NCBI GenBank assembly: GCA_905178155.1
Contig: CAJINV010000001.1
Coordinates: forward strand, 282,344 to 346,343
Source: Amoebophrya sp. A120
Taxonomy: Eukaryota; Protista; Dinoflagellata
Direction of reading: 5' to 3'
DNA length: 64,000 nucleotides
The translations under genes were made by a program, and so were the position numbers. The notes below the pieces were generated by a model. It ran no database searches, had not been told where the DNA came from, and saw only the letters and a list, made by a program, of their open reading frames with translations. Shown here one piece after another: positions 5,259 through 59,648 of the stretch. Each line of letters starts with the position of its first letter. The first letter of the stretch is position 1.

Positions 5259-5349
5259 CGCGTTGTTTGGTAATATAGTATATTACCAAACAACGCGAAT
5301 CCGAAAATCTGTGAGTATATTATACTCACAGATTTTCGGATTCGCGTTG
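5259..5349. repeat. Two overlapping perfect palindromes
   Basis: 5259-5297 has 19-bp arms with a 1-nt centre; 5291-5349 has 29-bp arms with a 1-nt centre. They share CAACGCG. Confidence 0.95.
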
Positions 5350-6061
5350 CTGGCGCCGGCAGTGTCTTTCAAATTTTAAAATTTGAAAAAGAATTTTTCT
5401 CAGCCTCAGGTGGCAACGGTTCAACGGAGGAACAAATCTCATGCTCCATCTTCATCGGCAGTTCTTCTACCGGTTCTCCGAGGATTTCTTGGAAAAATAT
5501 TTAGTTCTCTCGCGTTGACTATACCATGATGAAAAGAGCCAGCAGGTGCGGGTCCAGTGAAATATATTCACATTATCGATTGGGATTGGGATTGGGATTC
5601 AGCTGCTCGTGACACGACGGCAAAAGCCAGTACGAAAAAACAATTGAGATACAGAGTCAAAGTGAACGCAAATAAAGGGTCGGACTAATTTTGTCAGAAA
5701 AACAGAAGGAGTGCGAAGCTTTACAATAGTGCATGCGGGGCCTCACCAATTGGATATAGACCTATGAAACCATGTAAAGCGGGTCGTGGTCGTCATGTAG
5801 AAGTACAGAACAGAGCAATTACAATGAATGAGTGACATTAAAGACCTACGTTATGTTGTGCTTGTACAGATATAAAAAGATTGTTCTTACAAATGCTAAT
5901 TTACAGTGGAGTTGTGGACGAGCAGATGATACAACATGTCCATAGTGAAGAACCCCCGGGGGTGGTTCGTCTAAATCTATGGGCAGCAGAGTACTTAATT
6001 TCACTTTTCCTCGTAGTGCGAAATATTTTTGGAACGGTCACGCGCCTCCTTGTGTTTCGTT

Positions 6062-8607: not shown

Positions 8608-9483
8608 TCACGCTCCGGCATTCTTCGCATGAGCAAGCGAAGTCTCGCCGCCCTTCTTGTTTACAGCACCACCGCCGTCCCCGTCCTCCGCAAGAATGTA
8701 GGCAAACTTTTTCCCGCAAACGGAATCGCACTGTTGCTCTAACTTCAGGTAGCGCTGCCGCAACAGCTCCTGCTTTTCCATGAAGAGCTGCTTGGCCGCG
8801 TCGGTTTGGTGCGGTAAAATGCCGACGCAGGAGCTCCTGTTGGTGCTACCTTTTGAAACACTTCCGGGAGAAGTGGACGATGTTGACGTCGTATTTTCAT
8901 TGGAAATCTGTCCGCGATCGCTGTATGCCTATGGATTGTAAAAATGTCTGGGTCTGGAAGAATGCTAGACTTGTCATGCAGGTTTTCCATGACGACCCAT
9001 GTGAATGGGATCTGATATGGAGGACATAGCATGACAGATTCTGTGAGAGTTCTATCATGCCTATCGTCCTGCATTAGAAACTGCCGCTCGATTAGGTCAA
9101 AAGTGGACAGTTTTTGGTAATCATGCAGCACAGATTTTTACATGATTCAGATTTAGCATGACAAGTTGCTTTGTTCCAGACCAAGACATTTTTGCATTTG
9201 ATACGCTGGTGTTGACTTTGAAAATGCAATCGAACAATTGCCGCCTCTCTTCCAGTCCCATTTTCTGGACGTTCTCCTGGCATGTTTTCTGACAGTCTAT
9301 TGTGAGGAAAAATGTCCCCACACCAGAGTCAAGATGGAAAATCTTCGCTCGTTCGTTCGTGTGGATCGGCTCTGCCGACCGGGTAGCCCATCGCCTCACA
9401 TACAAATGACCGACGCGAACCCCGTTGCGGGACATACATATGGCCATATGGCCGCACGGAGGGGCCCTAAGCGCTACATACAT
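8608..9483 (-). CDS. Hypothetical protein interrupted by an introner (start uncertain)
   Basis: The frame ...ERRQLFDCIFKVNTS joins AYSDRGQISNE...KQLFMEKQELLRQRYLKLEQQC...AKNAGA* in frame once the 8930-9203 element is spliced out. Confidence 0.45.
8930..9203. mobile_element. Introner family A (274 bp), no clear TSD
   Basis: TIR tatggattgtaaaaatgtctgggtctggaa / ttccagaccaagacatttttgcatttgata. Here it can be read as a GT...AG intron in the minus sense. Confidence 0.85.
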
Positions 9484-9811
9484 AGTTCACCCTAAGCGCC
9501 TACCACTTCGGTCGGGACTGAGTCTACCTGGTCCTGGGGGTTCACAGCGCACTAGCCCTCTTGCTAGCATAAACAGATTGGGTTCTACAAACTGATCTAA
9601 CTCCTTATGACAGTCAGGCCATCTTAAAGGACAAATCAACCAGCTATGGTTGTTCCGCATGACAAGTTTGCTCTCGTAGTGTAATCCTGTTTAGCTAGTA
9701 GTTCCGAAGCATCACAGACGTAGCATATCATGCTCATCTTAGCATCACAAATTCCCAAACACGAAGGGAAAGTGGCTCTTTTGGGGCGTCGCATCATCAT
9801 CATCATCATCA

Positions 9812-10548
9812 TGTAGTGGACACCCGCACCCAGCGCCACAGGTCAAGGATCCCCTCCCCGGGGGGTGGGCGAGGAAGCACTTTCGGCGACCTCAACATAC
9901 AAAAGCCGAGCGCTACCACGGCAAGTCGCCCCAATAAAAGTGCCAACCAGTCGGGAGCTACCCACCACACCTGATCAGTACAGCCCGGCCTGCTAGCCGA
10001 GCGCGACAGCCCAGTATACAGAACGATCCAGGACCCGACCCATTTTACGCCATAAGTATTTGCTCTCACGGAAGAGACGACGCACCCCTTTGGGCTAAGG
10101 GGCGAGACTCTCCCTTAAGCCGCAACCCCACCCGGACAGGGGGGGCTGGACCATTTGTGCCTTCCCTGCGGCCGGCACGGACGAAAAAGGCAAGTGCGCG
10201 GACCGGAGATGCCAAGCGAACCATTGGCCAGTTGTTTGTCACGCTGACTGGCAACCCACCTGGGGCACAGCGACAGCTTAAAGGTTTAGTTTGTGCGTGG
10301 CAGTCTTAGTGCAGCTACTTGACTTATTCTGCAACAGAAGCAAAGGGTGGGAGGGGGGACGGGGATCATAAGCCGGAATCATCATCATCATGTAGTGGAC
10401 ACCCGCCCCCAGCGCCACAGGTCAAGGACCCCCTCCCCGGGGGGTGGGCGAGGAAGCACTTTCGGCAACCTCATCATACAAAAGCCGGGCGCTACCACGG
10501 CAAGTCGCCCCAAGAAAAGTACCAACCAGTCGGGAGCTACCCACCACA
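9812..10548. mobile_element. Pair of 158-bp direct repeats (9812-9969, 10391-10548); retroelement relic
   Basis: Near-identical copies with TGTAGTGG...CCACCACA ends, each preceded by (ATC)n, separated by a 421-bp spacer. No outer TSD or PBS seen. Confidence 0.6.
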
Positions 10549-12177
10549 CCTTTTTTTGGCATGAGATTTGCATGACAGCTCTGGGGTGGGGACGTTTTTA
10601 AATATGACACAGTCCTTCTTTGCGTCAAAGAACTCCCAAACCCGGCCGCGCATTTGCTGCGGGCGCGCAGCGTTCAGCGTGCTTTCCAGCTCAGCGACAT
10701 CCTTCGGGCGGAAATGCTCCATGATAGTGCGACAGAATAATTCCTTCAAGAACAAGATCTGAGGTGTACTACTCTTCAAGCTACATCACCGTGTAGCTTA
10801 CTACTAGTATGTAAGGGCAGCTTCGCGCAGTGCTGGCGCAAGTAAGTGCGAGCTACACGCGCACGAACTGCATTTGTCTTTCCCGCCAGCATGCAAACTC
10901 GAAACTGATGTCACACACTCGCAACACCAGCATCGGTCGGAAATGTGATGTTTTCTTTACTTTGCGCCAAATAATTTCTTTCTTTTTTTCAGCAGACAAC
11001 AGGACTCGGATACTTTCGAACATCACTACAGCCTGAAAAGATCATCGCAGAGCGGGTGCGACATCGAGATCCGCAGAATCATCTGTATGACAATTTTATT
11101 GAAAAAGCTGGCCCCGTTTCCTTTGAAATGGCCTTGGCCCCAAAGGGACAGTAATATTGATATTTTGCACTGTAGCACCACGTTGCGAAGTCCAAGGCAA
11201 TTCAAATTTCTATATGCAAATCCTGCTGAATAGTATATTTGCTAACTATAGTGACAAATAGAAATTGGCTGGACATTAATTGTGCACTGGCGTACGTGCT
11301 AACTGAGTTCCTGCGAGTAAGTGGCTAGATATTTCTCAACAACTTGCATCCAGAATCTGGTGACCAAAAAACACCCAAAAAAGACCAAAAGACGCGTTGT
11401 AGAACTGAGACTGACTCGGGGTCACAGAAACTTGTTTTACCCGTTTTCCTGTTTAAGTCTTTCCTCACATCTCCCACCACCTCAAAATACTTCTCAAGAT
11501 CTAGAAGAATCAAGCTCAAGCGGCTGTCGTCTTCACTAATTACTTCGGCGTTTAAGGTGTGCGTGTGGGTGTGCGGCTGCCCTGCCAGGCCTGGTTGTGG
11601 TCGGGAAAAAGAAGCATGTCAAAAAAATGACTATCAGGGAGTCCGCTAGATGATTCGCGAGGAAAAAAACAAACAAGAAGAAAATCTATCAATCTATCTA
11701 TCTATTGGGCAACTGGGATTTTAGGAACTTTAGGTGATGCGCCCCGCCCCCCTTCGCAGCTCGCTATAAAATTGACGTTCTGCAGACGAAGCTGTTGCCG
11801 TTCTCTCTTTCTGTTTGGAGTGGTGCGAAGACAAAAGCAATCATAAAGCGAAGATCTCCGAAAAATAAACTACTTCTCCCGCTCTTGCTTTCTATTTCTG
11901 ATGATATCTCCTCCGTTGTTTTCTTAGTTTTTCGCTTTTCCTCATTCTTCTGTCGCAGGTGATCTTCGGACGGTATGGCGAGGTTGATTTTAATTTTTCT
12001 CAAATTCTGTTGGTCACGAACTTGCAGAGAGACATCAAATACCTTCAGGCTTTTTCGAATACCGTGGTAAGTGCAATCCTGCTGAGATCGACGTCACGAC
12101 TTTCCTTACCTTTGGTGGTACTAGAGGCGGGAGGTTTCCTTGTGCCTCCGTGTGTAGCATTTTGTTACTTTGTCCAA

Positions 12178-26900: not shown

Positions 26901-27892
26901 AGCAAGTCCATTGCGCGCTCCATGATTTTGGTGTGGAACTCCAGCCGGGTCATGTCTTTCTGGAAATCCACGGTCAAGCGGTCCCGGCTGGTTGGCAATT
27001 CGTGCTCGTTGGCCTTGGGTCGCTGGGCTACGAAAATCTCCTTGGCCATGTTCAAACAGTCCTTGGCCTTGTACACGTCGTCCCAGCCGTACGCTACCCG
27101 GTCGCACTTCGGTAGGTCCGCCTTCGTCTGCGGCTTCGCCTGTTGCCGCAATAGAGCTTTATCGAAAGGAAAAATCCCCCCTCCCCATATCAAAACGGAA
27201 TTTCTGATGCTGGATTTGTGTACACAGATCAGGTTTGTATTGCAGAGAGGCACTGCGGCCAAATCCCCAGGCACGTTAGGGGCGTATAGGTGTAGTTGTT
27301 CAGCATGGCAAGCGGGTCACTTTTAGGGGCAACAGCATGACAGATCGCTTCCATAGTGGGGCGGAAGCTTCTGCCCTTGTCTTCTGGCAATACAGATGTG
27401 ATTTGCGACCTCAAATCAGCAACACAAATTTTCGGAAACATACCATTTCGATATGGGGAGGGGGGATTTTTCCTTACAATAAGCTTCCTCCGAAGTTTTC
27501 AACGGGAAAATCCAGACGTAGTCGCCCAGATATCCAAGAAAAAAACGTTGTAGGTGTAACTTTTTTGGAGGAACAGCATTACAAAGTTGTCTGGTATGAC
27601 AGCAAAAACCTGTCATGCGCAGATAGTACTCGAAAACGCCCTTTAGTGGACCCTACGATGCATGCCAAGCATGACAGACGCAATCATCTTGCATGTTGCG
27701 CATCACAAATTTCCACTAACATACAACGTTTTTTCTCTTGGATACCAGGTCGTCGTCGTTCACCACTTCGACCCCCAAAACATTTATCTTCTCCCGACCG
27801 CGCTCGGCTTTCAGCAGCGGCTGGATGTCCCGCTCGTTGCCACTCTGGGAGGGCAGCGGGCTCTTGCCCGCCGGATCCTCCGGGGCCGGCAT
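23918..27892 (-). CDS. Anoctamin/TMEM16 family protein, multi-exon
   Basis: Motifs KDYFGEEMAFFFHWF, ENHKTESRYQSSLVFK, DYMELTVQF, LALASNMIEYR...AESIGAW and EHILIFSKVLVEVAIPD. Several GT-AG introns plus three introners. Confidence 0.9.
24187..24427. mobile_element. Introner family A (241 bp), TSD aacta
   Basis: Family A TIR; aacta at 24182-24186 and 24428-24432. Removal gives AFLV-GEHILIF in frame. Confidence 0.92.
27160..27481. mobile_element. Introner family B (322 bp), TSD agctt
   Basis: TIR tatcgaaaggaaaaatccccc..ccccatat / atatgggg..gggatttttccttacaata. Removal gives TSEEA-LLRQQAK. Confidence 0.92.
27531..27744. mobile_element. Introner family G (214 bp), TSD ccaga/ccagg
   Basis: TIR tatccaagaaaaaaacgttgta / tacaacgttttttctcttggata. 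Removal gives DDDLG-DYVWIFP. Confidence 0.9.
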
Positions 27893-28520
27893 ATGGTCGT
27901 GTCAGGTCGGGAAACCTCCTAACGCGGACAAGTAGAAAGAGATCCCTGTGATAGGTGAAGCGGGCTCAAGTTGAGGGGAGAGAGATTTACTTTGGTGGAA
28001 AACCGAAGTGACACAGGATTTTATCGCTCTTTGTGTAGCAGCTTCTTCTCATACGCGTGGTGGCACTACGTCCTCCTCCTACCTCTTCCTCACAAAAGTA
28101 AGCTCTCAACACCTCTGGACATTGACGATAGATGCCCTGTGTCTTACGTCGCAGCAAGAAACTGCTCCTCACTCCAGCTCCAGTAGCACTTTCAGTCACC
28201 AGCACCCTGTAACAGAAAGAGAAACCAGTACTGAACCTCAAAAACAGTCATCCTTTTCCTTCCCGCCAAGACTGCGCAGTAAAACAAGTGGACCGTCGTT
28301 CCGAAAAACGTACTTAGCCCCCAGGATTTGCTTGAAGGTACTCAGTTACAACCCTCGGGCAAGTGAATGAATGCGAGCAGCTCCTGGACGAGAGGACCGA
28401 TGAAGCAGGAAATGGAAACCGGCAACCGCACTGCAATTATGGCGGATACATAGTGTTCATTTACGAAACAGGAGGACCACGCCATCGGCCGCGGGGGCAG
28501 GATGAAGTAGTTCTACTTAG

Positions 28521-28860
28521 ATTCTATGTACTTTCGCACCCTCGTCACTCTATCCTCCGTATTTTTTTGCTTTTACTGTATGGCGTTCTCAAACGTTACA
28601 TTCTCAACTGTTACATGAAATTTGTAATGCAAGAATGGCAAAGTGAAAGGGAAAACATTGCGCCTTTTGCATTACAGGTGTGGAGCAGATTATAATGCTA
28701 TCTAGCGCATCGAGAGGTTGTCATGCGGAGAAGGCTTGATCGTGTTAAGAGTGGTAGTGTTTTTGCATGACAAATCATGTAACAGTTGAGAATGTAACAT
28801 TTGAGAACGCCATATACTGTCCTCGTCGGATTTCATCACGTTGAAGATTTCAGAGATTGG
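28521..28860 (-). pseudogene. Duplicate of the Psf3 3' end carrying a family D introner
   Basis: Matches 30631-30990 except for the inserted element. Confidence 0.75.
28579..28814. mobile_element. Introner family D (236 bp), TSD tactg
   Basis: TIR tatggcgttctcaaacgttacattctcaactgttacatg / catgtaacagttgagaatgtaacatttgagaacgccata. Confidence 0.92.
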
Positions 28861-29199
28861 TTGGCAGCAGGGAATTTGTTGTGGGCCATGCAAAGCGCAA
28901 CACCTTTACCCAGCGACACGCCCAACAGCCATCCGGCGGCTGTTCGCTGTAGAGCATGCAAGGAGCCACACTGCGACGGGCGAAAACACGCAACCGCTGC
29001 CGTTTTAAGACGCTGCGCGCCCGCCCACCCTTACTCAGCCGGCGCCAAACATGTGCCCGCCCCCGTGGCTAAAAAGCGCGCGCGGGCACGCACAACAAAA
29101 CGACAACGGGGCCGGCCCCGCTCCCGGCGGGCGCAGCTCATGGGCGCGCACGGCTTCCGAGGTTCTGCAAAGAGGGAGGCGGAAGCAAGCAATTTTATA

Positions 29200-29380
29200 C
29201 AAAACCCTGAGAAAGTAGCACAGAAGCTGCGTCTTAGGGTTTAGAAGCAACAAAATTTACACCAAAACCCCGAAGAAGAAAAGCTGCGTCCTAGGGTTTA
29301 GAAGCCACAAACGTTGCACCAAAACCCCGAAGACACACCCAACTTGATAACAAAATCTCAGAAAGTAGCAGAGAAGCTGC
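29200..29380. repeat. Short degenerate ~60-bp tandem repeat with TAGGGTTTA/AAACCC motifs
   Basis: aagctgcgtc(t/c)tagggtttagaagc..caccaaaaccccgaaga occurs twice, plus partial copies. Confidence 0.6.
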
Positions 29381-29664
29381 AGCGAAACCAATGCAGCCAG
29401 GGGCACCAGGGTGCCGGCAGGTGGGATTCACGAAGTTGATCAAAGATCATCTCTGGCATCATCTAGAAGGACCGGGTCGCAGAAATTAAAACTCAAAAGT
29501 ATGCCTTGTGGTGCACCTGTTGTTCAGTTTTGTCAGAGACAATCATGCCTATGCGACCAATCACAGTTCCGGCGACACCACGTTCACACATAAGGAGCTA
29601 TTCTCCCAGCACATCTAAAGTCCCCTGTTCTCAACTCCCGGGTGGGTAGTTGTTGGGAAAGACT

Positions 29665-29733
29665 CTCGTCACTCTATCCTCCGTATTTTTTTGCTCTTAC
29701 TGTCCTCGTCGGATTTCATCACGTTGAATATTT
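29665..29733 (-). pseudogene. Introner-free copy of the Psf3 last codons
   Basis: Encodes IFNVMKSDEDSKSKKIRRIE* uninterrupted, with a single cttactg site. Confidence 0.85.
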
Positions 29734-30100
29734 GGTCATCGGCCTCTCCAACCCGTCCATCCGCGGCCGACCAAATCGGACCGAGATCGCGATCTCGGGA
29801 CGATTTGGACAACGGCCTCTCCAACCCGTCCATCCGCGGCCGACCAAATCGGCTCGAGACCGCGATCTTGGGACGATTTGGCCATCGGCCTCTCCAACCC
29901 GTCCACCCGCGGCCGACCAAATCGGCTCGAGATCGCGATCTGGGGACGATTTGGTCATCGGCCTCTCCAACCCGTCCACCCGCGGCCGACCAAATCGGCT
30001 CGAGGCCGCGATCTCGGGACGATTTGGTCAGCAGCCCCACCAAACCGGCTCGAGAACGCGACCTCACGCCGATTTGGTCGCCCTCTCCAACCCGGCCCGA
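29731..30100. repeat. 73-bp tandem repeat (4 full copies, then degenerate)
   Basis: tttgg starts at 29731, 29804, 29877, 29950 and 30023. Units contain gatttggtc/gaccaaatc inverted motifs. Confidence 0.9.
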
Positions 30101-30657
30101 AGTGCCAGAGCCAGACGCCCATCCGAACTGACCCGCCGCCCTCCCGCCTCGTCCCCAACCCGGCCCGGCGTGCCGGGCCCCATCGCTTCCCGACCAAACC
30201 GCCACTCCGGGCCGACTTCGGCCGCTCCGACCTCTGGCCCATCCGCGAGCGACCAAACCGGCTCGAGAACGCCTGCGCCCCCCGGCCAAATCGGCTCGAG
30301 AACGCGTTCTCGGAGCGGCTTGGCCCGCCGTCCTCCTACCTCCTCCCCAACCCGGCCCGGAGTGCCAGAGGCGTCGCCCACGCGATCGCGTTCGCGCGCC
30401 CGTTTGATCCGCGGGAAAGGCGCTGCCACAAAAGCTGCGCCAACCCACGATGGATCGCTGGCCCGCTTTTGTTCTTGCGACCGGCGGGCGCGAAAGCTGC
30501 CAAATATTGCGACCCTGGGGAAAGTTTCAGGGTGTGCACTGCACTGTTCGTGAAATTATCCGAGACGCGAAATACGCACCAAGTACAAAGAGCTTACGCG
30601 GCCGCTTATTTAACAGGTGCCCAAGCTGTAATTCTATGTACTTTCGCACCCTCGACG

Positions 30658-31787
30658 TCACTCTATCCTCCGTATTTTTTTGCTCTTGCTATCAAAAGTA
30701 AAAATCCCTGGATGTCTGGAAACTTGTGATGCTGGGTGGCGTCTCATGATGAGGCTACAAATCCTGACTCAGCATGACAAGTTTCTGAGCTCCTAGGTGT
30801 TGCCTGTTCTGCATGACAAACTGCGCTTCTGCATCACAGAAAAACGGAGCTCTTAGGTAACGTGCATGACAGATGTAAGAGTCATGCCAGACAAGCATGA
30901 CAAACATGAATTCTTCCAGACCCAGACATTTTTACAGTTGATACTTACTGTCCTCGTCGGATTTCATCACGTTGAATATTTCAGTGATGGCCAGTTCTGC
31001 CTCGCGAATCCCGAAAAACAGGTTTTCCTCCACGTACGTGAGCATTTGCACGTACAATGGATCCACGTGCTCCGCCACGCCCTTGCGCCCGAGCATGGTG
31101 ATCGTCGCATTCCATCTTGCTTTCGCGGCGCTGAAGAGCTGGTTGCGCAGCCGCGGCCACGCCATTCGTTCCACATCCAGGGGAAGCTGCACGTTGTATC
31201 GATGGAACCTGAAAATGAAGTATTAATTTGTATCAGTTACGACAACATGCTGCATTAAGTCTTAGTTCCTCAAAAATCAACGAAGCAACCAATAACCTAT
31301 CTATGCCCCACCGCAACTAAGTTCTTGTGACGTAGATGAAAACATATCAATCTATCAATTCACAAACACACTGCTTCTATCTATACACGAACGCCATCCT
31401 TGACCCGATTTCGAAGTAGAAGGGCGAAAAATTCCGCAGGTGGACTTTGGACGGGTCACTCGCGAGACTGTACACGAGCGAGTCGCAGTACTGGTTCGGC
31501 GCTTCGAATTGTACTGTCCCCTTGATTTGCCCCGTCGCGGCGTCCGTCTGCGTCAGTCCGATGAGCGCTTGCGCGAGCCAGAAAGGTAGCTTCAGCTTCG
31601 TCCCCGCGGGCAAGGTGAGCTCTTCCGCACTCCCGGTGGTCCGTTGCGCCATGCCGACGCCTTCTAGGAGGTGTGCCGCATGGTACAGAGGGTGATTCGT
31701 TTCGCAGGGAATCAACTCCTCCTCGCTTATTAGCTCCTCCAGATCCCAGTAGTCGCGGCAGGGCGAGTACAAGGAATGCTGCGCCAT
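30658..31787 (-). CDS. PSF3: GINS complex subunit Psf3
   Basis: DYWDLEELISEEELIPC, LPAGTKLKLPFWLAQAL, LASDPSKVHLRNFSPFYFEIG and LTYVEENLF. One GT-AG intron (~31385-31209) and one introner near the stop. Confidence 0.88.
30690..30943. mobile_element. Introner family A (254 bp), TSD cttgc/cttac
   Basis: Reverse-orientation relative of 44899-45150. Removal gives DSK-SKKIRRIE*, identical to the empty copy at 29665. Confidence 0.92.
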
Positions 31788-33045: not shown

Positions 33046-36000
33046 CTACATTCGCCTTTTCGGTGGTGAGATATTACCATCTCCGCCTTCAAAACGCGAA
33101 CCCTTGACGGACAGATTCACCTGTACCGGTCGTTTCTTGGTCGCGTTCACGGGAAAATTCCACTGGCCGGTCGCCGTTCCCCGCGGCGGACTCAACACCG
33201 AGGACTCTTCCATCGCCAAACAGGGCAGCGACTTCTTCGCGGCACTCACCGCGGCCATCACCTCGCCGGCCGACGGCTTTCGCATTTTGCGGATGTGGTA
33301 GTGTTATGCATTGCAAAAGTATCGTACTCGTATAAATGCATTACAAATTCCCTCAGCATGAAAAGCAAAATTTGTCATGCGGATTTACCTTAAGAAAGAA
33401 ACTTGTAATGCATGACTGCAATTACTACGAATACGATACTTTTGCACAGGATAAGTGTTCCTTCATCCCCGCGGCGAGTAAGGCGGACAAAGTGCTCCCG
33501 CCGATAGTAGTACTACCGGGCGGCCCTGATGTTGTTGAACCGTTTCCATTGGCGGAAGAGTTTATCTTCATCCCAGCAGATGAATGATCGCCCAGGGTAG
33601 GCACGACAGACTTCGTCGGCAACTGGTCGCTGTAGTTGGCGACGACATCGCCGGGCGCTACTGTACCTGCTGCAGCCGCGGCGTTGATCAGAATCCCTGC
33701 AGTCGTCGGTGTCGGGTTTCTACTGGTCGTGCTTTTTTGGTTCAAATTCAACATCTCCGATGCTGGTGTTGTGCCAGCAGAGTGGTTGTAGTTGTCTAGA
33801 AAATGTTCCTTCGACGCGTGCTGCAAGTTCGTGAAGACCACGCTGCCTTCCTGCAAAAAATCCCTCTGCTGGGCCGAAACCGTCGGCGGTGTGGCCGTAC
33901 TTGACGTTCCGGGGGCTCGTTCTGAGCGCTTTCTATTGCTAGGTACCGTGGTCGACTCGTCAAATCTTAACATTTGGCTGGGAATGGAGCTCGTGTATTT
34001 ACCATTCCCACCACCACCAGCTGCACCGTTCATAATCCCGCTGGTGCCGTTCCCACTCAGGGGCCGACTGTTCCCGACAATTTCGCCCTGCGTGTTGATG
34101 GCCTCGTCCCGCCGCAGCGTGGACCGGAGCTCTTGGCGCCGCTTCTGGGCCAACTGGGAGATGAACTTCTCGACCGAAAAACCATCCCCAGCAAAATCTG
34201 CCTGCTGCTGCTGGACCTGAGGTTCAGGTTTTGTTATTGATGGGCATGTGGGATTTTTCTAGCTATAAACTTCATCGTTTCAGTTTTTTCTGTTCAAGCT
34301 CATCGAGGTCAAACTGTTCTTACAGGTACAGGTCGTAAAGCAAAACTTGTTCATCATTCAAAGCAATGCTTTACCTGATCCAGTTCCATCTGGTGAATGA
34401 TTTGCTGTTGCGGCTGTGTTGCCCTGGTATGCCTTTTCTGTGCGCGCGCGTTCAGGGAGCGCAGGCTGAGTGGCAAATTGCGAATGGCGTCCTTCACCGG
34501 CGTCGGGCCGGTGTGCATGATTTCCGCAACCGTTTTGCCCTTTTGTCCGCTGGCCGACACTGTGCCGCCCGGCGTGCCGAATTCGCCGGGGAAGTTGCCC
34601 TCGATTTTGGACACTGAAATCGGGACGATGACCGACCCGGAAGCAGAGTGCGTCATGATGGGCGTGGTCAACATTTTCACGGATGTTGAATCAACAGAAT
34701 TCATCTTGTGGGGCGTCGCGGTCGCGTTCACAATCTTCGTCGTCGCCAGACTGTGCGGCATGCCGGCGGGACCGGCGACGCCGGAACTAGCTGGTGCGCT
34801 CGGCCTCTTCGTCGGCGCGTTGGAAAGTCCAACGAGGTCCCGTAGGTCCATATTCTTCTGGTGCTTGTTGAGACGGTCACTAATTACGATCCCAGGGTCG
34901 ATTGACTTGCTCTGCAAGCTACTGCTGGCGAGAGAAATCGATGCGGAGTTTTCTTCTTTGCTATTGCCATCGAGCTGCTGCATTCCACCTGCTGCCGCAC
35001 AGTCAACGCCGGTGTCTGGATGCTGCTGCTGTTCTTGTTGATGCGAAAGCACAACGTCGGGATTCGTCCCGAGCACCTCCATTTCGGATGATTCCTCTGC
35101 ACCAGAATACTGTGGTATTTGTTGATCCGCAGCTTCTGCTCCACTGTCAACAACCACGGCGCCGGAATTATTAGTAAAAACAACCTGTCCTCGCTTCTTC
35201 ACCAGATTGGAAATGTGTTCGTCGGCCGAGCTCGCTGGGTCTGAGTGGATCGCGTTTTGACTCGCGTTTCGCGCAACATCGAGCGCGTTGAACGCGTCGC
35301 TCCCGACCGTGTAGATGTTCGGTCCTAGGTTATTACGGGTAGTTGTTGTAATTCCGTTACGGGTGGACGACACGAGCTTCTTCCCCACAGGCACGATGTT
35401 GCCTATCGTAGTAGTTCTTTGCTGCTGAAGCTGCCGTGTCTGTCGCAACAAGCCCACCGCGCTTGTCGGGTTGCTGGCGGTGTTCTGCTATGCATTGCAA
35501 AAGCATCGCACTGGCAGCAATAGTATAAATTGCATGACAAATTTCGGCAAGAAGGAAAGTGGAACTTGTAATGCTGTTTTGCCCTAGGAGAGATATTTGT
35601 CATGCATATTTGCAATTAGTACGGGTACGATACTTTTGCACAGGATATCTGCTCGTCATCAAACGGCCCGACCGTCTCGCCGTTGTGCCACGTTGGCGGC
35701 GGCACGCCGTTCACGCTGCCATTGAAGGAGACCACCTCCTGCACGATGCCCCCGAGATTCAGACTTGCGAGCAGGTTCTGCGCACTTTGGTTGACGGCAG
35801 CGGTATTTATTGTCGGTTGTTGTCCTCCTCCTCCTCCGAGCACCTGCGCTAAGGGCGTGGTCCCCGCACTGCCCCCGTCGCTGGACGAAACCGCGGCGCT
35901 CAAGGCCGCGTTCGGCGACTCTTCCACGATGGTCACGCCTGTCGGTGGCTGCCCGTCCTGCTCAATCGCTGCCCACACAGGCTGCCTTTGACTCCGCATC

Positions 36001-51724: not shown

Positions 51725-54700
51725 TCACAACTGCAACATATTAACTCTAAACTTCCCAGAGAAGGAACACTCCGTCTCAACCAGAATCTTGACTACATTC
51801 CAATTTCCCGTGCTCAAGAGCAGCCTCGTCAAGTGCGAGCTACATTGTTCATTTCCTGAGAATGATGCTCCCGATCTACTTGGTGTTCTTGACAAAAGAT
51901 CTACAATCGACCTGTAGGGTGAGCACTGGTGAATAGGTGCGCCCAAATATCCCACAGAAAAAAGCTGGCAGGGCATATTTCTTTGTAATGCAAAAATAAA
52001 TACACAGAAAAATCTGCCATGGGCGGCCTCATAGCATGCTGTTTAGGATACGCAATACAGATTTTCTTGTGTATTTATTTTTGCAATACAAATGTGACCT
52101 GCCAGCTTTTTTCTGTGGGATACCAAAGTGTTGAGCCAGTCGAGTTTGCAGAGCGCATTCTCCCTATCAAACGTAAAAATGTCTGGGTCTAGAAGAATGC
52201 AACTTGTCATACTAAATCTGGAGCATGCAAAAATCAGTGTTGCATGATTACCAAAAGTCGTCCAGTTTTGACCAAGTCGCGAGGGCGTTTTTCATGCAGG
52301 ATAGGCATGAGAGAGATCGCACAGAATCTGTCATGCTAGGTCCTGCATTCCAGACCTCATGGGTCATGGAAAAGCTGCATGACAGAACGCGCATTCTTCC
52401 AGACCCAGACATTTTTACATTCCATACTCCCCGGCGATCAGCATCTCCTTCCACGAGGGTAGTTGAGGCTTTTGTTTCACATTCACTGGGTCTACATTTA
52501 TTGGAGTGGAAGACAATTTGTTTTCACTACGTAGTCGATGGGAGGTAATCCCATCGACAATCTTCCAAGGACGCATGTTGTGGGGGTACCAGAGGGCGAC
52601 CTGACCCCAGTCTATGTAGGGTGACGCAATGGTGTTTATTTTCACCGAAGATACAGTGCTGGTGGTCCCTTGCATGTTCCTATCATTCATCTCATTTTTC
52701 ATTTCTTCGCGTCTCCCCACCCTCGTCCGCAAGGGTGTTGGACCGATTGAAAACGGCGGCTCGAGATGGTCGCTGAGCGACACGGGTACGCAACCGGAAA
52801 AGAACGTTTCATACAGACGCCCGGTGTATGCCGCGAGACCGCGCGGCACCAGGCAGTACTTGCACGTGTCCCCGAGGATCTTTTGATGAATCCTCGTTCC
52901 CATCGGCTGTCCGACATGCAGACCGCCGCTCCCGCTGGTCGAGGCGTGAAGCGCCGCGTGCTGCATGGTCACTCCCTCATACGCCAGCGCGGAAGTAGCC
53001 GCAGTTGGCGTCAGAGCCGCTCTTGAAGATGTGCTGGGAGAGGTTGCTGGTGTCCTCGAATTCATCAGTTTCTCGCGGTTTCGTTCTACTTTTCGGCGTG
53101 TTTTCTTGACTGTGGCTACGTAGTTATCCCATTTTGCAGTCTTGAACTGCAGTTCTTCCACCAGCTCAGACCTCGTCGTTTCGTTCACGGAAACGTACGC
53201 GTTGTTGACTCTGTCACCGAGTTGCCAACCGTGTCTCCCGGTGCGTGCGCGCTGCCCGTGCCAGCAGACAAGCTGCGTCCGATTGGGCCAAACGTAGTTG
53301 CGGTGCTTCAAGTACGCATTCGCCCGGTTATTGTCGACGACCGACGGGACAATGATCGTTGAACCAGCGGATAGAGGAGTTTTTGGTTTTGGTTTTTTCT
53401 CCTGCTTGCTTGCAAGAACATCTTGTTCAACACCAACGCTTATAATTTCTTCATCCCTTCTATTCGCCTTCCCCTCGTCCCCGGTGCGACGGTCGTAGCA
53501 CAAGTCAGTCTCGCAATGAGACAGGTAGTCAAAGAAGCTCTGTGGTGCCAGTGAAACGGTGGTATTCGTTTCCGTCGGCGGCAGCTGCTCTGCTGCGTCT
53601 GCTTTGACAAGCCCTGGCTTGGTGTTATCCAAACTGCTACGAAGAGTTCTTGAAGGTACAAGTACATCATCGACTTGCGGGGGCACAGTAGCAGCTTCCA
53701 TTTTCGTTTCGTCTCCTTCGACCCTTTCCAGCAGATACTGTGCCGCGCTTTCGATAATCTGCACGGTTTCCACCCTCGCCGCTTGCAGCACCGGTCTGCT
53801 CTCCACGGCCAAAATAGTTGCGTCCGACAGCCAGGAGTACCCTTTCAGCCGCGGATCCCCAAATAACGCGGTCCACGCACTGGACGAGAACACCACCACC
53901 GTTTTGTTTAGTTCCGTGAAAATTTTCTCGGTCTTCCCGCGCCGTCGGAACGCTTTTTCCATTTGCAGTCCGCTGAACCGACTGTGCACGTCGATCGCAA
54001 AGTTCTCCGCGCGATCCAAAAACTCCGCGAGGGCGCCGGCATAGTTGACCGGGAGGTCAAACTCTGTAGTTCCACCGGCGTGACCGCCGGGAATCGATAC
54101 CGGCCTCGCAGGGCGAAAAACCGCGGCGTGCCAGGTAGCTTTGGCGCATTCGAGACGCGTTGTCGTGCGTGGACGAGCCTTCATTTTGCTCGTGGTCCTG
54201 TGGGGACCGGGACGGTTCTGTCTTGATGTCCGCCCCGTGGAGTTCCTCGACTGTTCAACGAAGACCTCCTGCGACCGTGGCCGCGCCCGAAGGATTTGGT
54301 TTGCGATGAGGTTCAGTTTTTCCGCGAAGGTTGGAATTGTGTAGAGACGGTCGAAAACATGGACGATAGCAGTATTCTTGCCTTTGTTCTCAACGCGCTT
54401 TATTTCTCCGTCCGGTAGTTTGTTCGCAGACCCAGATCGAACTTCGCCCAACAGCTCGACTCCGCGCAGCCGGACGCGTGTCAGGAACTCTCTTACCGCG
54501 GAATACAGCGCGAAAACGGAAGGTCGCTTCGGCCTCGCCCAGCGCCGAGACACCGCAGCCCGCACGTCTTTCACTTGTTGTGCTGTATGCAAGAGTTCGC
54601 GATGCACGTCGTAGAAGGGGAGAAAGTAGTAGTCTGCTTCCGCCGGGTCCGACACCGTCGTTCCAAATTTATTGTTCACGAGGAACCGATGAAAGTACAC

Positions 54701-56531: not shown

Positions 56532-57387
56532 TTAGGGCGGAAAAATCGGCAAATAGCATCACTTTTGCCAGCGCACTTTTTGGGGGGGTAAAAGATTTTT
56601 TTTGTTGGGGGCGCAACATCTTGGAAGCCGACTCGCCTCGCGTGTCACTTCATCTGTTCCACCGGAAACATGATGGCTGAGCTTTGGAAATGCCGCAACA
56701 CCAGGACCAGAAGCAGGCCACAGCGCCTTCGTTCTGTGCCTTGTCGTTCAGATGGCCGGACGCTTTGTCGTGGGCCCGCTCTTCGAAAAGTGGCCGGGCC
56801 GCCTCCGTGACCGGGGCTTGACGAGGCCCTTCGCCCAGAAAAGGAGGCCCGGCCAGGGGGGGGTGGTCAGGGGGTTGCATTTTTGCCCCTCCCGGACAAC
56901 CCTCCCGGGTACCCCTTCCGGGTACCCTTTCGGTAGCCTATGCCGACCCCCTAATCCCCATTGAAAACTGCCGATTTTGCGTGCCCCAAAATGGTAGCCC
57001 AGAGGCAGCCCAAGCGGACCCCCTTACACCCCCCCTTCGGCACCCCCCCCGGAAGCACTTGACTGCTGGCGCGTCCGCCTTCTCAATATCCGGCCGGAGA
57101 GGGAAGATGAGAAGATATCTGGGCGCGTCCGGAACTGGATGTGGGAGAGGGGGCGCGGCTTCCCGCGCCAGAGGGCCGCAGGCCTGTGCAACTGCAACAA
57201 AGTGCTGTGGTTTTATTTCAAAAAGGGGGGGGCCGGATGGCGGACCGTGGCAACGAAGAGTGGCGCCAGCATCTAAATGGCCAACAGGAAAAAAGCAGTA
57301 GCGACACCCCCAACAGCCATAATTTTTTTGCCCCCCCAAAATGCGCGCTCACAAAAATGATGCTATTTGCCGATTTTTCCGCCCTAA
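56532..57387. mobile_element. MITE-like non-autonomous DNA element (856 bp), 5-bp TSD aacga
   Basis: TIR of about 65 bp: ttagggcggaaaaatcggcaaatagcatca.. / ..tgatgctatttgccgatttttccgccctaa. aacga at 56527-56531 and 57388-57392. Confidence 0.88.
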
Positions 57388-57760: not shown

Positions 57761-59648
57761 TCAGCTGCCGTCCTTTGGTTGGTTGTCAACCATGAGCTTC
57801 CAGCCGTCCCCGCCCCGCGAAAAGTTCCGCTGCAGGTCCTCCAACTCCTTGGCCCAGCCCAGCTCCTCAGCGAGTTCGCGCACAACGTCGTCACAGCTGC
57901 CTGATAGAAACAGGTCCCGGAAGTTTTTTTCGTGTTCGAACTGGAAACCGCCGGTGCCAAAGTCCTTGCAGGTCCCGACCATCTCGTTATTGATCAAAAC
58001 CCGGGGGGTCTTCAGGTCGCAGTGCGTGATGAGCCGGTTGAAGGGCGCCACCTGCAGGCTGGTACCGAGCACGAGCACGCAGTCGGCAGCTTTGAAGTCC
58101 GCCTTCCGCAGCTGGTGAAAGCGGTCGGGCAGATTTTCGCCGAAAAAGACAATGTCCGGCTTCACCAGCCCATTGCAGGATTCCTCCACGGTCTTGAAGG
58201 CCTCGGGGTTATCGTCCTCCTCCGCATCGGGCGAAGTAGATGTCGGGGGGTTGTTTTCGTCTGTTTGCTGCGCGACAAATTCGAGGTTGCGGATTCGCTT
58301 TTTCACGATGGCGCTACACCTGTATGTACCGATAAATTTTATGAAAATGAAAAAAATGAAAATGATGTATACTCACATCAACTGGTGCCTCCAAACGAGA
58401 AGTTCGGCTCGATGTTTTTTTCGTCGCCAAAATTCCCAAAGAATTATATCAACCGTGTTCAACAACATTCTCGACGATTCGCAAAATCCTATCCCTACCT
58501 TGGCACTATGCCCTTTTCGATATCTTCCCTCCATTTTGTCAGCGACACCTGCGCTCCGCACTCCACACAGTGCACGTCGGCGAAGGACCCGTGCGCGTAG
58601 ACCACTTTTTCGTCCGGCAACCCCGCCTGCTTTTCCAGGGTGTCGATGTTCTGCGTGTACACGCGGCGCAGCAGGTCTTTCTGCAGCAGGAGCTGCAAGA
58701 AAAAGTGCGTGACCGTGGGCGCGAATTTCCCGGGTAGCATTTCCAAGGCCCGCTCGCGGAAAGGCTCCGGGTTTTGCTTAAAGTAGCTGATGTCAAACAG
58801 GGACTCGGGTCGGGACATGCCGTGCTCGCGCCGCAGCTTTTCGTAAAGCCCGTTCTTGCTCCGAAAATCCGGAATCCCGGCGCTGACGGAAATCCCCGCG
58901 CCCGTCATCGCGATATCGTGAGAAAAAAATCCCCCCTCCCCATATTGAAAAGGACACCTGTGATGCTGGATTTGCGTACAGAAATCTACTTGTATTGCTA
59001 GAAGTCCAAGAAGCACAGTTGTGGCCTCAATTTCAGGCAATTTGTCATACTGCTCTCCAGTTCCAGTTGCATCCTGTCATGCTGAAGATGCAAGGCTTTC
59101 TTTCCCACGCAAGCGAGCACTCCAGTCCGCATCTTTTGCTTTCTAGCATGGCAACATGATTTGTGGCCACAAATCATGCTACACAAATCTCCGTTTTAGT
59201 ATGGGCAGAAGGGAATTTTCCTTTTGATACACGACCAGATCCTTCCATAGCCCCTTGCGGATCTTGTCGGCCAGGGTCTTCAGCGATATGTCGTCGTTAA
59301 ACACGGCCGCGCGTTCCTCCTCCGGAATATCAAATGTAAAAATGTCTGGGTCTGGAAGAATGCAAGTTTGTCATGCTTGTCTCACATGACTCCTAAATTT
59401 GTCATGCACATTACCCAAGACCCCCATTTTTCTGTCATGCAGAAACGCAGTTTGTCATGCAGAATAGGCAACACCAAGAAGCTCAGAAACTTGTCATGCT
59501 GAGCCAGCACTTGTAGCCTCCTCATGATACGCCGCCCAGCGTTAGCGTTACAAGTTTCCAGACCCAGACATTTTTGCATTTGATACGGAATCGTGTCATA
59601 CCAGGAGGTGTCCTCTGGTTTTTCAAGTATGAGAAAACTATCGAACAT
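57761..59648 (-). CDS. Sir2-family NAD-dependent deacylase (class I, SIRT2-like); start uncertain
   Basis: VVMTGAGISVSAGIPDFRS, YTQNIDTLE, AHGSF..C..C, KPDIVFFGENLP and GTSLQVAPF. Two introners and one GT-AG intron. Confidence 0.93.
58914..59229. mobile_element. Introner family B (316 bp), TSD cgcga/cacga
   Basis: Removal restores KDLVV-MTGAGIS. Confidence 0.9.
59328..59585. mobile_element. Introner family A (258 bp), TSD cggaa
   Basis: Removal gives WYDTIP-EEERAAVF. Confidence 0.92.

Follow-up and report, generated by a model that had tools for sequence, protein, structure and literature searches.

The window analysed here comprises 64,000 nt of the parasitic marine dinoflagellate Amoebophrya sp. 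A120 (contig CAJINV010000001.1 of assembly GCA_905178155.1, contig positions 282,344-346,343, forward strand), and carries on its reverse strand a DNA-replication gene, that for the GINS subunit Psf3 (Pfam PSF3_N, 30.8 bits with a cut-off of 27, E 2.8e-7). The final ~70-100 bases of this gene are present in triplicate: copy C3 (30631-30988) contains introner A, copy C2 (about 29662/29665-29733) is empty, and copy C1 (28521-28857) contains introner D (Table 1). Sequence comparison recovered all three at the places where the original prediction had put an A-filled, an empty and a D-filled end of Psf3. An exon model ending at the stop of C3 (TGA 30660-30658) is identical to the public protein P0001 (source label: Amoebophrya sp. 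A120), and this is the stop used by the annotated protein. With the elements and one repeat removed, C3 and C1 translate as I(T/S)EIFNVMKSDEDSKSKKIRRIE up to the stop, and C2 translates as IFNVMKSDEDSKSKKIRRIE up to its stop. Self-BLAST between the copies gives matches of 36-60 nt with 92-100% identity (E 2e-9 to 2e-16), a similarity far beyond chance. Over about 103 nt, 3 substitutions and a 3-nt indel separate C3 from C1; two of the three coding differences between them are synonymous, and in C1 a 1-nt change affects the final base of the A target. C2 agrees with C3 at two coding sites and with C1 at the 3-nt indel. An outgroup Psf3 was not found, with a protein search among 19 candidates returning only the window's own protein and a metagenome scan giving 139 pattern matches, 0 of them confirmed.

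Table 1 Features of the Psf3 3' region, in the direction of transcription (window positions).
Feature	Position	Strand	Evidence
Psf3 coding exon 1, ATG at 31787	31387..31787	-	PSF3_N match and P0001 identity
Canonical GT-AG intron 1, 178 nt	31209..31386	-	skipped in X3/X5 contigs, unskipped in X1
Psf3 exon 2; last ~45 nt are the C3 left arm, ending with upstream TSD 30944-30948	30944..31208	-	
Introner A, 254 bp, TAT…ATA ends, ~30-bp TIR, one end degenerate	30690..30943	.	
C3 right arm: downstream TSD copy 30685-30689 (1 mismatch), final codons, stop TGA 30660-30658, 3' UTR start	30631..30689	-	RNA contigs 30524-30685
Repeat piece Y, 66% GC, multicopy in genome	29734..30630	.	contig 29988-30617, depth 356 vs ~42
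Skipped 3' UTR piece, 1,641 nt; ends TT…CC or CT…CC (1-nt slide)	28883..30523	-	X3/X5 joint 28882/30524
Empty copy C2, ~70 bp, stop TGA 29671-29669	29662..29733	-	DNA contig 29667-29727, depth 36.9, 0 differences
Piece Z	28858..29661	.	
C1 left arm and upstream TSD 28815-28819; within 3' UTR	28815..28857	-	
Introner D, 236 bp, 40-bp TIR (39/40 complementary), perfect 5-bp TSD	28579..28814	.	D/left-arm junction in X7 DNA contig
C1 right arm and downstream TSD 28574-28578; silent stop copy 28547-28545	28521..28578	-	
Remaining 3' UTR, poly(A) site 28326	28326..28520	-	X5 contig 28326-28570

Five of the 11 listed sequencing runs (X1, X3, X5, X7 and X9) were compared with the window. X1 consists of DNA contigs, possibly from the very sample behind the window assembly. 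X3 and X5, neither of which is labelled RNA, were treated as RNA because the GT-AG intron 1 is skipped there and retained in X1. X9, raw RNA reads with the same species label, contributed 92 reads, almost all on the terminal repeat of A, and 0 on the bins of the upstream Psf3 exon.

A is flanked by CTTGC (30685-30689) and CTTAC (30944-30948), a 5-bp repeat that is 4/5 identical, and its TIR of about 30 bp has 4 mismatches and a 2-nt indel. TACTG flanks D at either end. The empty copy has CTTACTG a single time, at 29696-29702, and the targets of A (29696-29700) and D (29698-29702) lie 2 bp apart within it. Because this empty site with single copies of the 5-mers is present in DNA contigs, the flanking repeats are true target-site duplications (TSDs), as had been claimed. 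A and D have no BLAST match to each other, and this, together with their different, overlapping TSDs, identifies them as separate events, in line with the claim that two unrelated families occupy nearly one position. A fits the terminal pattern of A120 introner elements, TAT followed by seven variable bases and at least 3 A; D starts with TAT and has its A run two bases later. Both are repeated in the genome and have very high summed contig depth in X1, with 7 copies of A in the window and at least 151 loci outside, and 2 copies of D in the window and 16 outside BLAST matches. Among the matches listed, the 5-bp TSD is exact in 140 of 166 outside elements selected with a filter that permitted one mismatch, and 10 of 109 outside A elements have a TSD mismatch like that of A. 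A scan of the window for TAT…ATA ends with 5-bp repeats returned 18 rows, compared with 0-4 per shuffle in 10 block shuffles; the final list of 18 elements drops 5279-5499 (marginal) and 35489-35608 (overlapping) and adds 8924-9203 and 58914-59229. A and D belong to the known Amoebophrya type of introner with TAT…ATA ends and are likely non-autonomous DNA transposons. Compared with 21 relatives, the 254 nt of A include 8 private columns (6 events), and the flank copies show 4 events over about 103 nt, counts that suggest overlapping, compatible ages. Its TSD mismatch and degenerate TIR end make A somewhat older-looking than D, and A may for that reason predate the copying.

A composite repeat insert of 1.8 kb, missed in the original prediction, is enclosed by the copies. 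Within it, Y holds a 4.1-copy, 73-bp hairpin-forming tandem repeat (29730-30030), and its outer end meets the end of the duplicated segment at about 30631, where homology between C3 and C1 stops. Z is single-copy at 28858-29211; its part 29226-29662 occurs a second time in the genome, with 7 differences in 118 nt, and contains 57-bp repeats carrying telomere-like words. The Y/C2 join has 4-nt microhomology with the 73-bp unit at 29730-29733, and the C2/Z join is near-blunt. Neither Y nor Z has a Pfam or Rfam match at gathering level, and four long ORFs there have no Pfam match. A coding or tRNA-/ncRNA-derived origin of Y and Z was rejected, with only two weak miRNA-model matches far under the gathering score and no tRNA, and a long ORF ending in C2 (29669-30526) was taken as a by-product of the GC-rich repeats. 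Y and Z also have no BLAST match among the at least 151 outside A loci. C2 itself has no poly(A) tail, no flanking repeat of its own and no excision footprint, and ends 4-7 nt past its stop, where it is joined straight to Z. It corresponds to the mRNA across the A junction, but lacks the 3-nt UTR insertion of today's mRNA, which may be younger.

In the mRNA, Psf3 ends in C3, A is removed, 1,641 nt are skipped and poly(A) follows behind C1. All three copies lie within this one transcription unit, which had escaped earlier notice, as had the 1,641-nt skip. Removal of A with one TSD copy (259 nt) leaves the exact empty junction, which is present in contigs of X3 and X5 overlapping those of exon 2 and of the C3 right arm, and P0001 agrees with this removal. 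Four boundary pairs keep the frame, AA-GC, AG-CA, GT-AA and TA-AG, none of them GT-AG, and GT-AA (30944-30686) is likely the one used. Canonical GT-AG removal of A or D was rejected because it would delete one extra base, while the RNA has the exact empty form. D would also be removed from RNA. In DNA the empty-site contig stops at 29727, where the D junction branches off; this branch is absent from both RNA graphs, whose contigs reach 29728. In the runs examined, no contig has a D-spliced junction. X3 and X5 leave Y uncovered at 29818-30502 and the interior of D with little or no cover, to which no weight is given here. The joint 28882/30524 has a depth of 7.7 in X3 and 47.3 in X5 and is absent from X1, and the piece skipped there takes in the whole of C2 and the greater part of both Y and Z. 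The ends of this piece can pair (duplex of -44.2 kcal/mol, with 2.8% of 500 shuffles as low), and their duplex ranks 2/213 and 3/217 against other windows. The piece was rejected as a TSD-flanked element, there being a mere 1-nt repeat at its ends, and we propose that it is dropped as a large non-canonical UTR intron. The poly(A) site is marked by 9 untemplated T ahead of 28326 in one X5 contig (28326-28570).

The three copies form one locus and are not merged haplotypes. Taking contig depth as a rough measure of copy number only, the unique X1 contigs have depths of 41.8-42.9, the empty site 36.9, the Z|C2 junction contig 40.3 and the right flank of C3 about 43 (derived), and the 31-mer common to the three left arms and the D-junction contig has a summed depth of 156, which fits three copies and one junction. 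Record 14 of X3 links 30524-30685 in C3 to 28816-28882 in C1, and record 18 of X5 links the C2 right arm via Z to 28854. Near single-copy depths and an RNA contig joining C3 to C1 place three copies in one genome, and the merging of haplotypes, named in the original prediction as what would overturn it, is not borne out. It is very improbable that A-filled, D-filled and empty alleles of different cells or strains were joined in tandem by the assembly, even though no listed contig covers the whole stretch, no DNA contig crosses Y|C2 or either A junction, Y as given in the window differs at 11 positions from the sole X1 contig over 30092-30502, and one X7 contig of depth 7 passes from the end of D into the gene exon. 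The flanks and the empty site each have about full single-copy depth and not fractions of it, RNA contigs of two samples join C3 to C1 and one joins C2 to C1 in the assembled order, at 30583 RNA contigs agree with the window and not with the X1 repeat contig, and the X7 path crosses a 31-nt stretch common to all copies, which a 31-mer graph cannot phase.

Among the matches listed, 75 of 97 A-family target sites have a T-N-G motif on one side only, at a distance of 13-15 nt from the target centre. Both transcript orientations occur (21 and 14, with 39/74 sites unclear), and the motif was rejected as a splice signal; A/T tracts are not enriched near targets (3/133 near vs 5/133 further out). Neither Psf3 site has the motif; a better target is present at a distance of 8 nt. 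The A site departs from the motif at a single base, a third codon position where the change is synonymous, and the D site lies at the 9th percentile of the background. A sequence-defined hotspot is not supported and was rejected as regards the A motif; the D family is represented by 4 sites. That part of the earlier suggestion, a hotspot with independent gains after duplication, lacks support, and independent gain survives as the best reading. Regional clustering is real, on a scale of 20-100 nt beside existing elements. In the window, 5 of 17 neighbour gaps are at most 100 nt (p 5e-5, at a threshold picked after the data were seen), each of these close pairs consisting of two different families, and at a 500-nt threshold clustering in a set of 17 elements is not significant (p 0.14). 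Around the at least 151 outside loci, an A end has 3.1 neighbours per kb in its nearest 100 nt, compared with 0.55 per kb at distances of 150-800 nt (p 4e-7). For D itself, the surrounding 829 nt are free of neighbours. Under uniform insertion, the 2-bp coincidence has a probability of about 0.0015 per copy, and about 0.05 once a 100-bp copy is struck; it would reflect chance and regional accessibility, not a sequence-defined hotspot.

We consider it somewhat more probable than its negation that a repair event duplicated about 100 bp around the composite repeat insert, and that A and D then inserted independently. A break just past the Psf3 stop codon would have been repaired by template switching, duplicating about 100 introner-free bases around the 1.8-kb repeat patch and a third 70-bp copy; later, A would have inserted in the coding copy (C3) and D, independently, in the 3' UTR copy (C1). 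We infer the repair mechanism, the order with copying before the insertions, and a cut-and-paste transposase activity. Templated insertions at double-strand breaks, arising by template switching or RNA-templated end joining, copy local sequence repeatedly, with microhomology at the junctions and foreign pieces between; in the present case the foreign pieces are long (800-900 bp), and DNA and RNA templates are indistinguishable. The gene would survive because the cell removes A at non-canonical ends, possibly defined by the terminal hairpin, and discards the patch as a large UTR intron with non-canonical ends. This order of events is consistent with the geometry of an insert with duplication, in which multicopy Y stops at the end of C3/C1 homology and poly(A) lies behind C1, with the microhomology at Y|C2 and the near-blunt C2|Z join, with A and D as separate events of compatible ages under real non-uniform targeting, and with published parallel gains within 15 bp for fungal introners (PMC4457414). 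However, it leaves the 2-bp coincidence unexplained, the T-N-G motif is at neither site, and clustering is seen beside existing elements, yet D stands without such a neighbour. A looks older than D and so could precede the copying, and the two synonymous differences among the three between C1 and C3 also fit C2 as a later copy of the coding copy. The DNA contigs that leave Y|C2 and the A junctions uncrossed, the roughness of depth as a measure and the possible identity of X1 with the window's source also weigh against it.

It is possible, though rather unlikely, that A was already in the gene and that the extra copies derive from spliced Psf3 mRNA, a broken end in the 3' UTR priming reverse transcription that jumped between mRNA and repeat templates (Z, Y) to give A-less C1 and C2, with D arriving later. 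The copies do run in the cDNA direction from the break 28521/30631, both Y and Z belong to dispersed repeats, the TSD of A is mismatched, one A end is degenerate, and an A site one base short of the motif at a synonymous third position is expected for an old insertion; but 22 of 97 A sites among the matches listed are without the motif anyway, and the ages of A and the copies overlap. C1 and C2 carry the upstream TSD form, the one that spliced mRNA keeps, but this does not discriminate because it is also the original target form. The 3-nt UTR insertion of the present mRNA is missing from C1 and C2, neither inner end has poly(A), and the 2-bp coincidence is equally unexplained. A coupling of events through the transposase would explain the proximity: the duplication carried A, D was drawn beside A, and A was precisely excised from C1 and C2, or the transposase break itself triggered the copying. 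Insertions around the at least 151 outside loci are ~5.5-fold enriched within 100 nt of an A end, for which a bound transposase attracting insertions is a proposed basis, the site is bracketed by all three copies, and C1 is changed at the last base of the A target. We nevertheless regard this coupling as improbable, since it needs two near-perfect excisions, C2 has no footprint, and the smallest neighbour gap is at least 22 nt in 51 gaps of outside loci among the matches listed. D is not the product of element replacement by gap repair, because its TSD is a new 5-mer. We also consider unlikely a fuller account of the locus as a snapshot of introner turnover. In it, a 3' UTR break would have been patched from spliced Psf3 mRNA with template jumps into introner-free copies, the empty copy would be an alternative terminal exon bypassing A, and a second family belonging to the TAT-ended system with 5-bp TSDs would have struck the other copy anew at an offset of 2 bp, while the A family of that system would recognise a one-sided motif at a distance of one helical turn from the cut.

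The accessible sections of Farhat et al. (2021, PMC7789003) describe introner elements of A120 as repeated non-canonical introns of about 240 nt, with TIRs starting TAT and 3-5 nt direct repeats, and A120 introns as having no fixed splice dinucleotides, with GT-AA among the listed types. A and D share with these the TIRs (at least 8-20 nt), the 3-5 nt boundary repeats and the genomic repetition, and A shares removal at non-canonical ends. The same sections term the flanks direct repeats and argue against general transposase mobilisation in A120, whereas here the empty copy in the same genome demonstrates a fixed 5-bp target duplication; they describe no distal target motif or neighbour clustering, both of which are found here for the A family. 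The 1,641-nt UTR skip lies outside their analysis because introns there were limited to 40-1000 bp. In the available portions of work on MITE-type introners (Gozashti et al. 2022, PMC9860276; 2025, PMC12130899; Polarella ILEs, 10.1101/2020.10.14.339549), these are non-autonomous, intron-creating elements with TIRs and TSDs and several families per genome, and A and D share their fixed-length TSD relative to an empty site. A120 itself, according to the later of these portions (PMC12130899), holds diverse TIR introners, many classed as TIR transposons. Splice sites of the Polarella classes and algal examples are given there as carried or TSD-recruited, GT/GC/GA-AG, whereas A has no in-frame GT-AG removal, and the insertion preferences described are genic, GC-rich and linker-biased, in contrast to the one-sided motif 10 bp from the cut in the A family. 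Fungal introner-like elements include unrelated new introns in a 15-bp window of homologous sequence, as here (Collemare et al. 2015, PMC4457414), but those gains were inferred across species, whereas the present locus has the two gains and the empty state together in 2.5 kb of a single genome and in one transcription unit.

Because the elements and parallel gain are already known, the locus is a telling case and not a new system. The filled, empty and filled triple in one genome is direct evidence that the 5-bp repeats are target-site duplications, in a lineage where introner movement is contested between the argument against general transposase mobilisation in the available text of PMC7789003 and the TIR-transposon class in that of PMC12130899. 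The locus is also a natural test set, since a single transcription unit contains the same exon sequence in three states: intron-free, A-bearing and D-bearing. The dropping of a 1.6-kb repeat patch without canonical ends from the 3' UTR speaks to the tolerance of the splicing system, and the one-sided motif of the A family could serve as a fingerprint for the mobilising enzyme.

The three copies of the Psf3 3' end lie in the window at the positions given in the original prediction. The gene itself is identified as Psf3 by a Pfam PSF3_N match (E 2.8e-7), with C2 and C1 downstream of it. The exon model that uses the stop codon of C3, the copy with element A, is identical to a public protein (P0001) with the source label Amoebophrya sp. 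A120. Read in the empty copy C2, the target of A is at 29696-29700 and that of D, the element in copy C1, is at 29698-29702. The prediction that two different families struck almost one position also holds, with an offset of 2 bp and no BLAST match found between A and D. Both belong to a set of 18 elements in the window that have TAT…ATA termini and lie between 5-bp repeats; in shuffled sequence, the same scan gave 0-4 rows.

Features of the window and their coordinates
Feature	Position	Strand	Remark
Psf3 start	ATG 31787	minus	followed by 178-nt GT-AG intron 1, then exon 2
Psf3 stop	30660-30658	minus	exon 2 broken near its end by element A
Element A	30690-30943		inside C3, near end of Psf3 exon 2
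Y (repeat piece)	29734-30630		between C3 and C2
C2 (empty copy)	about 29662-29733		downstream of Psf3 stop
Z (repeat piece)	28858-29661		between C2 and C1
C1	28521-28857		downstream of C2; carries element D at 28579-28814
380-bp element with inverted ends	240-619
GC-rich palindromic repeat region	1108-2944
U6 snRNA	39859-39964	minus
tRNA-Lys(CTT)	40416-40492	minus
SRP RNA	40573-40730	minus
58/81-bp higher-order tandem array	42005-43455

Contig evidence on the integrity of the locus was drawn from five of 11 listed public sequencing runs. Run X1 was treated as DNA because it retains intron 1. Unique X1 contigs have depths of 41.8-42.9, the empty site is covered by a 61-nt contig with 0 differences (depth 36.9), the junction of Z with C2 by a 68-nt contig (depth 40.3), and the right flank of C3 has a depth of about 43, as solved from the depth table. 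The 31-mer common to all left arms, summed with the D junction, has a solved depth of 156, as expected for three copies and a single junction. Single-copy depth at each site argues against alleles, because alleles would split that depth and not each attain it, with contig depth being a rough copy measure and X1 possibly the assembly's own sample. No X1 contigs were seen across the junction of Y with C2 or across the A junctions, which weighs little because short links into very deep repeats were probably pruned. One X7 contig (depth 7) runs from the end of D into the gene exon, but on the way it crosses 31 nt that all copies have in common and that cannot be phased in the graph. In two RNA-like samples with a study code other than that of X1, X3 record 14 joins 30524-30685 to 28816-28882, the same joint (30524|28882) recurs in X5 at depth 47, and record 18 of X5 runs from the C2 right arm through Z to 28854. 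With the flanks and empty site each near single-copy depth in X1, and RNA-like contigs linking C3 to C1 and C2 to C1, it is highly improbable that misassembly has brought together copies that are not one tandem locus.

Contigs from X3 and X5 skip intron 1, contain the exact empty junction with 0 differences (depth 20.8 and 88.9, respectively), and skip 28883-30523, a 1,641-nt piece that takes in C2 and the greater part of both Y and Z; one X5 contig has 9 untemplated T residues before 28326. Together, these features indicate a main mRNA whose stop codon is that of C3 and whose end lies behind C1. This mRNA lacks A and keeps the duplicated 5-mer in its upstream form. Four boundary pairs yield the observed A junction (AA-GC, AG-CA, GT-AA, and TA-AG), with GT-AA, which is listed among A120 splice types in Table S4 of PMC7789003, probably the boundary used. 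The 1,641-nt piece ends in TT…CC or CT…CC, with no target-site duplication (TSD) at its ends. These ends can pair at -44.2 kcal/mol, a value as low as this occurring in 2.8% of 500 shuffles, and in comparison with other windows the pairing ranks 2nd of 213 and 3rd of 217. Instead of splicing, the skip may reflect reverse transcriptase jumping across Y, which is rich in hairpins. From graph shape alone, D also appears to be removed from RNA. A minor RNA with the C2 right arm and Z (depth 9.7 and 7.4) is either an unspliced precursor or an exon 2-to-C2 isoform, in which case the C-terminal peptide would be unchanged.

At one element per 3.3 kb, the chance of a second insertion within 2 nt is about 0.0015, or about 0.05 once it is assumed that the 100-bp copy is hit at all. 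Searching with the terminal repeat of A found at least 151 loci outside the window, and the 80 itemised by contig all lie in JACKZZ01 contigs. These loci hold at least 166 TAT…ATA elements, 140 of the 166 with an exact 5-bp TSD. A-family targets rebuilt from the matches listed (L001-L151) and the window elements have a one-sided motif, in which T lies 15 nt and G 13 nt from the centre of the TSD, and a consensus of roughly (A/T)(A/T)D-T-Y-G-Y. Among the matches listed, 75 of 97 A-family sites have this motif, where the background rate is 0.11, and so do 16 of 36 sites of other families. Its side (left 36, right 41, both 2) does not depend on how the element is oriented (41 and 42 of 106), and sites with the motif fall in transcripts of either orientation (21 and 14; for 39 of 74 the orientation is not clear), again among the matches listed. 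The motif is absent from both the A and D sites in Psf3, which score at the 66th and 9th percentile of background, respectively, and the site that scores best in C2 lies 8 nt away from that of A. The locus is therefore no sequence hotspot for this motif, and the insertion hotspot of the original prediction falls away in that form; any target preference of the D family would have to be read from 4 sites.

Introners do cluster strongly by region, which shows uneven targeting. In the window, 5 of 17 neighbour gaps are at most 100 nt (p 5e-5, with a post hoc threshold). Among the matches listed from outside loci, the first 100 nt beyond an A end hold 3.1 neighbours per kb vs 0.55 at 150-800 nt (about 5.5-fold; p 4e-7), and none of 51 gaps is under 22 nt. 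Close pairs from different families, 37-93 nt apart with one TSD excluded, lie at 27160-27744, 38567-39041, 44899-45528, 51948-52426, and 58914-59585. D has no present neighbour element within 829 nt, so the 2-bp offset is partly unexplained despite the clustering.

C3 and C1 have about 100 bp in common, and a poly(A) site lies behind C1. The unique contig of the C3 right flank starts at 30602, so the shared Y sequence would end at about 30631, the same point as the end of the C3/C1 homology. This shared limit and the poly(A) site make an insertion the simplest geometry, in which the original gene end and UTR received a Y-C2-Z insert that duplicated about 100 bp. Y is joined to C2 through 4-nt microhomology; one X1 contig of depth 356 covers part of Y, whose 73-bp units add up to depths in the thousands. 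For part of Z there is one further copy in the genome, and this copy diverges directly behind 29662. The insert, duplication, and microhomology resemble template switching during break repair.

We lean towards a sequence of events in which an empty, introner-free Psf3 end would have been copied, with A and D then inserting in two independent events; the independent gains after duplication of the original prediction thus survive as the preferred mechanism. A DNA template would copy A if present and an mRNA template would not. It is possible, if rather unlikely, that the extra copies were RNA-templated from a Psf3 gene already with A. A has 8 private columns (6 events) relative to 21 relatives, and its TSD is mismatched. 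Between C3 and C1 there are 3 substitutions and one 3-nt indel; C2 agrees with C3 at two coding sites and with C1 at the indel. A and D each have at least 3 positions at which they depart from 97% or more of the family depth. Dating from these differences does not decide the order of copying and insertion of A. Coupled insertion and excision is a more doubtful alternative, and still less weight falls to mechanisms other than these and misassembly. At its acceptor-side end (30690-30720), adjoining the TSD mismatch, A has a 2-nt insertion and a 2-nt change absent from 21 relatives, which make this end resemble the B-family terminus.

Elsewhere in the window, an 856-bp element (56532-57387) is related to the introner type but longer; its inverted ends of ~80 bp start with TTA, and it is flanked by a 5-bp repeat. 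A 21-nt word close to the end of this element recurs in Z at 28912-28932 (E 0.003). At 9799-9972 and 10378-10551, a 174-bp direct repeat (96%) that begins with an ATC microsatellite brackets 405 bp. It is a dispersed repeat, because a 97% copy occurs at L025:1162-1345, and is perhaps a small LTR- or SINE-like element. In the minus-strand small RNA gene cluster (39859-40730), a 64-bp repeat lies just upstream of U6 (39972-40035) and SRP (40733-40795).

In their features, A and D match the A120 introners described in PMC7789003 and the terminal-inverted-repeat introners of PMC12130899 and PMC9860276, and parallel intron gains within 15 bp are reported in PMC4457414. In a search of mostly non-subscription introner literature (including PMC7789003, PMC12130899, PMC9860276, PMC4457414, PMC11282704, and 10.1101/2020.10.14.339549), we found neither this Psf3 locus nor the one-sided distal motif nor clustering of introner neighbours reported, with the SI insertion-motif figures of PMC9860276 possibly bearing on the motif. 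The one-sided motif may be a fingerprint of the mobilising transposase. The Psf3 locus is real, well supported, and instructive, and is built from known elements.
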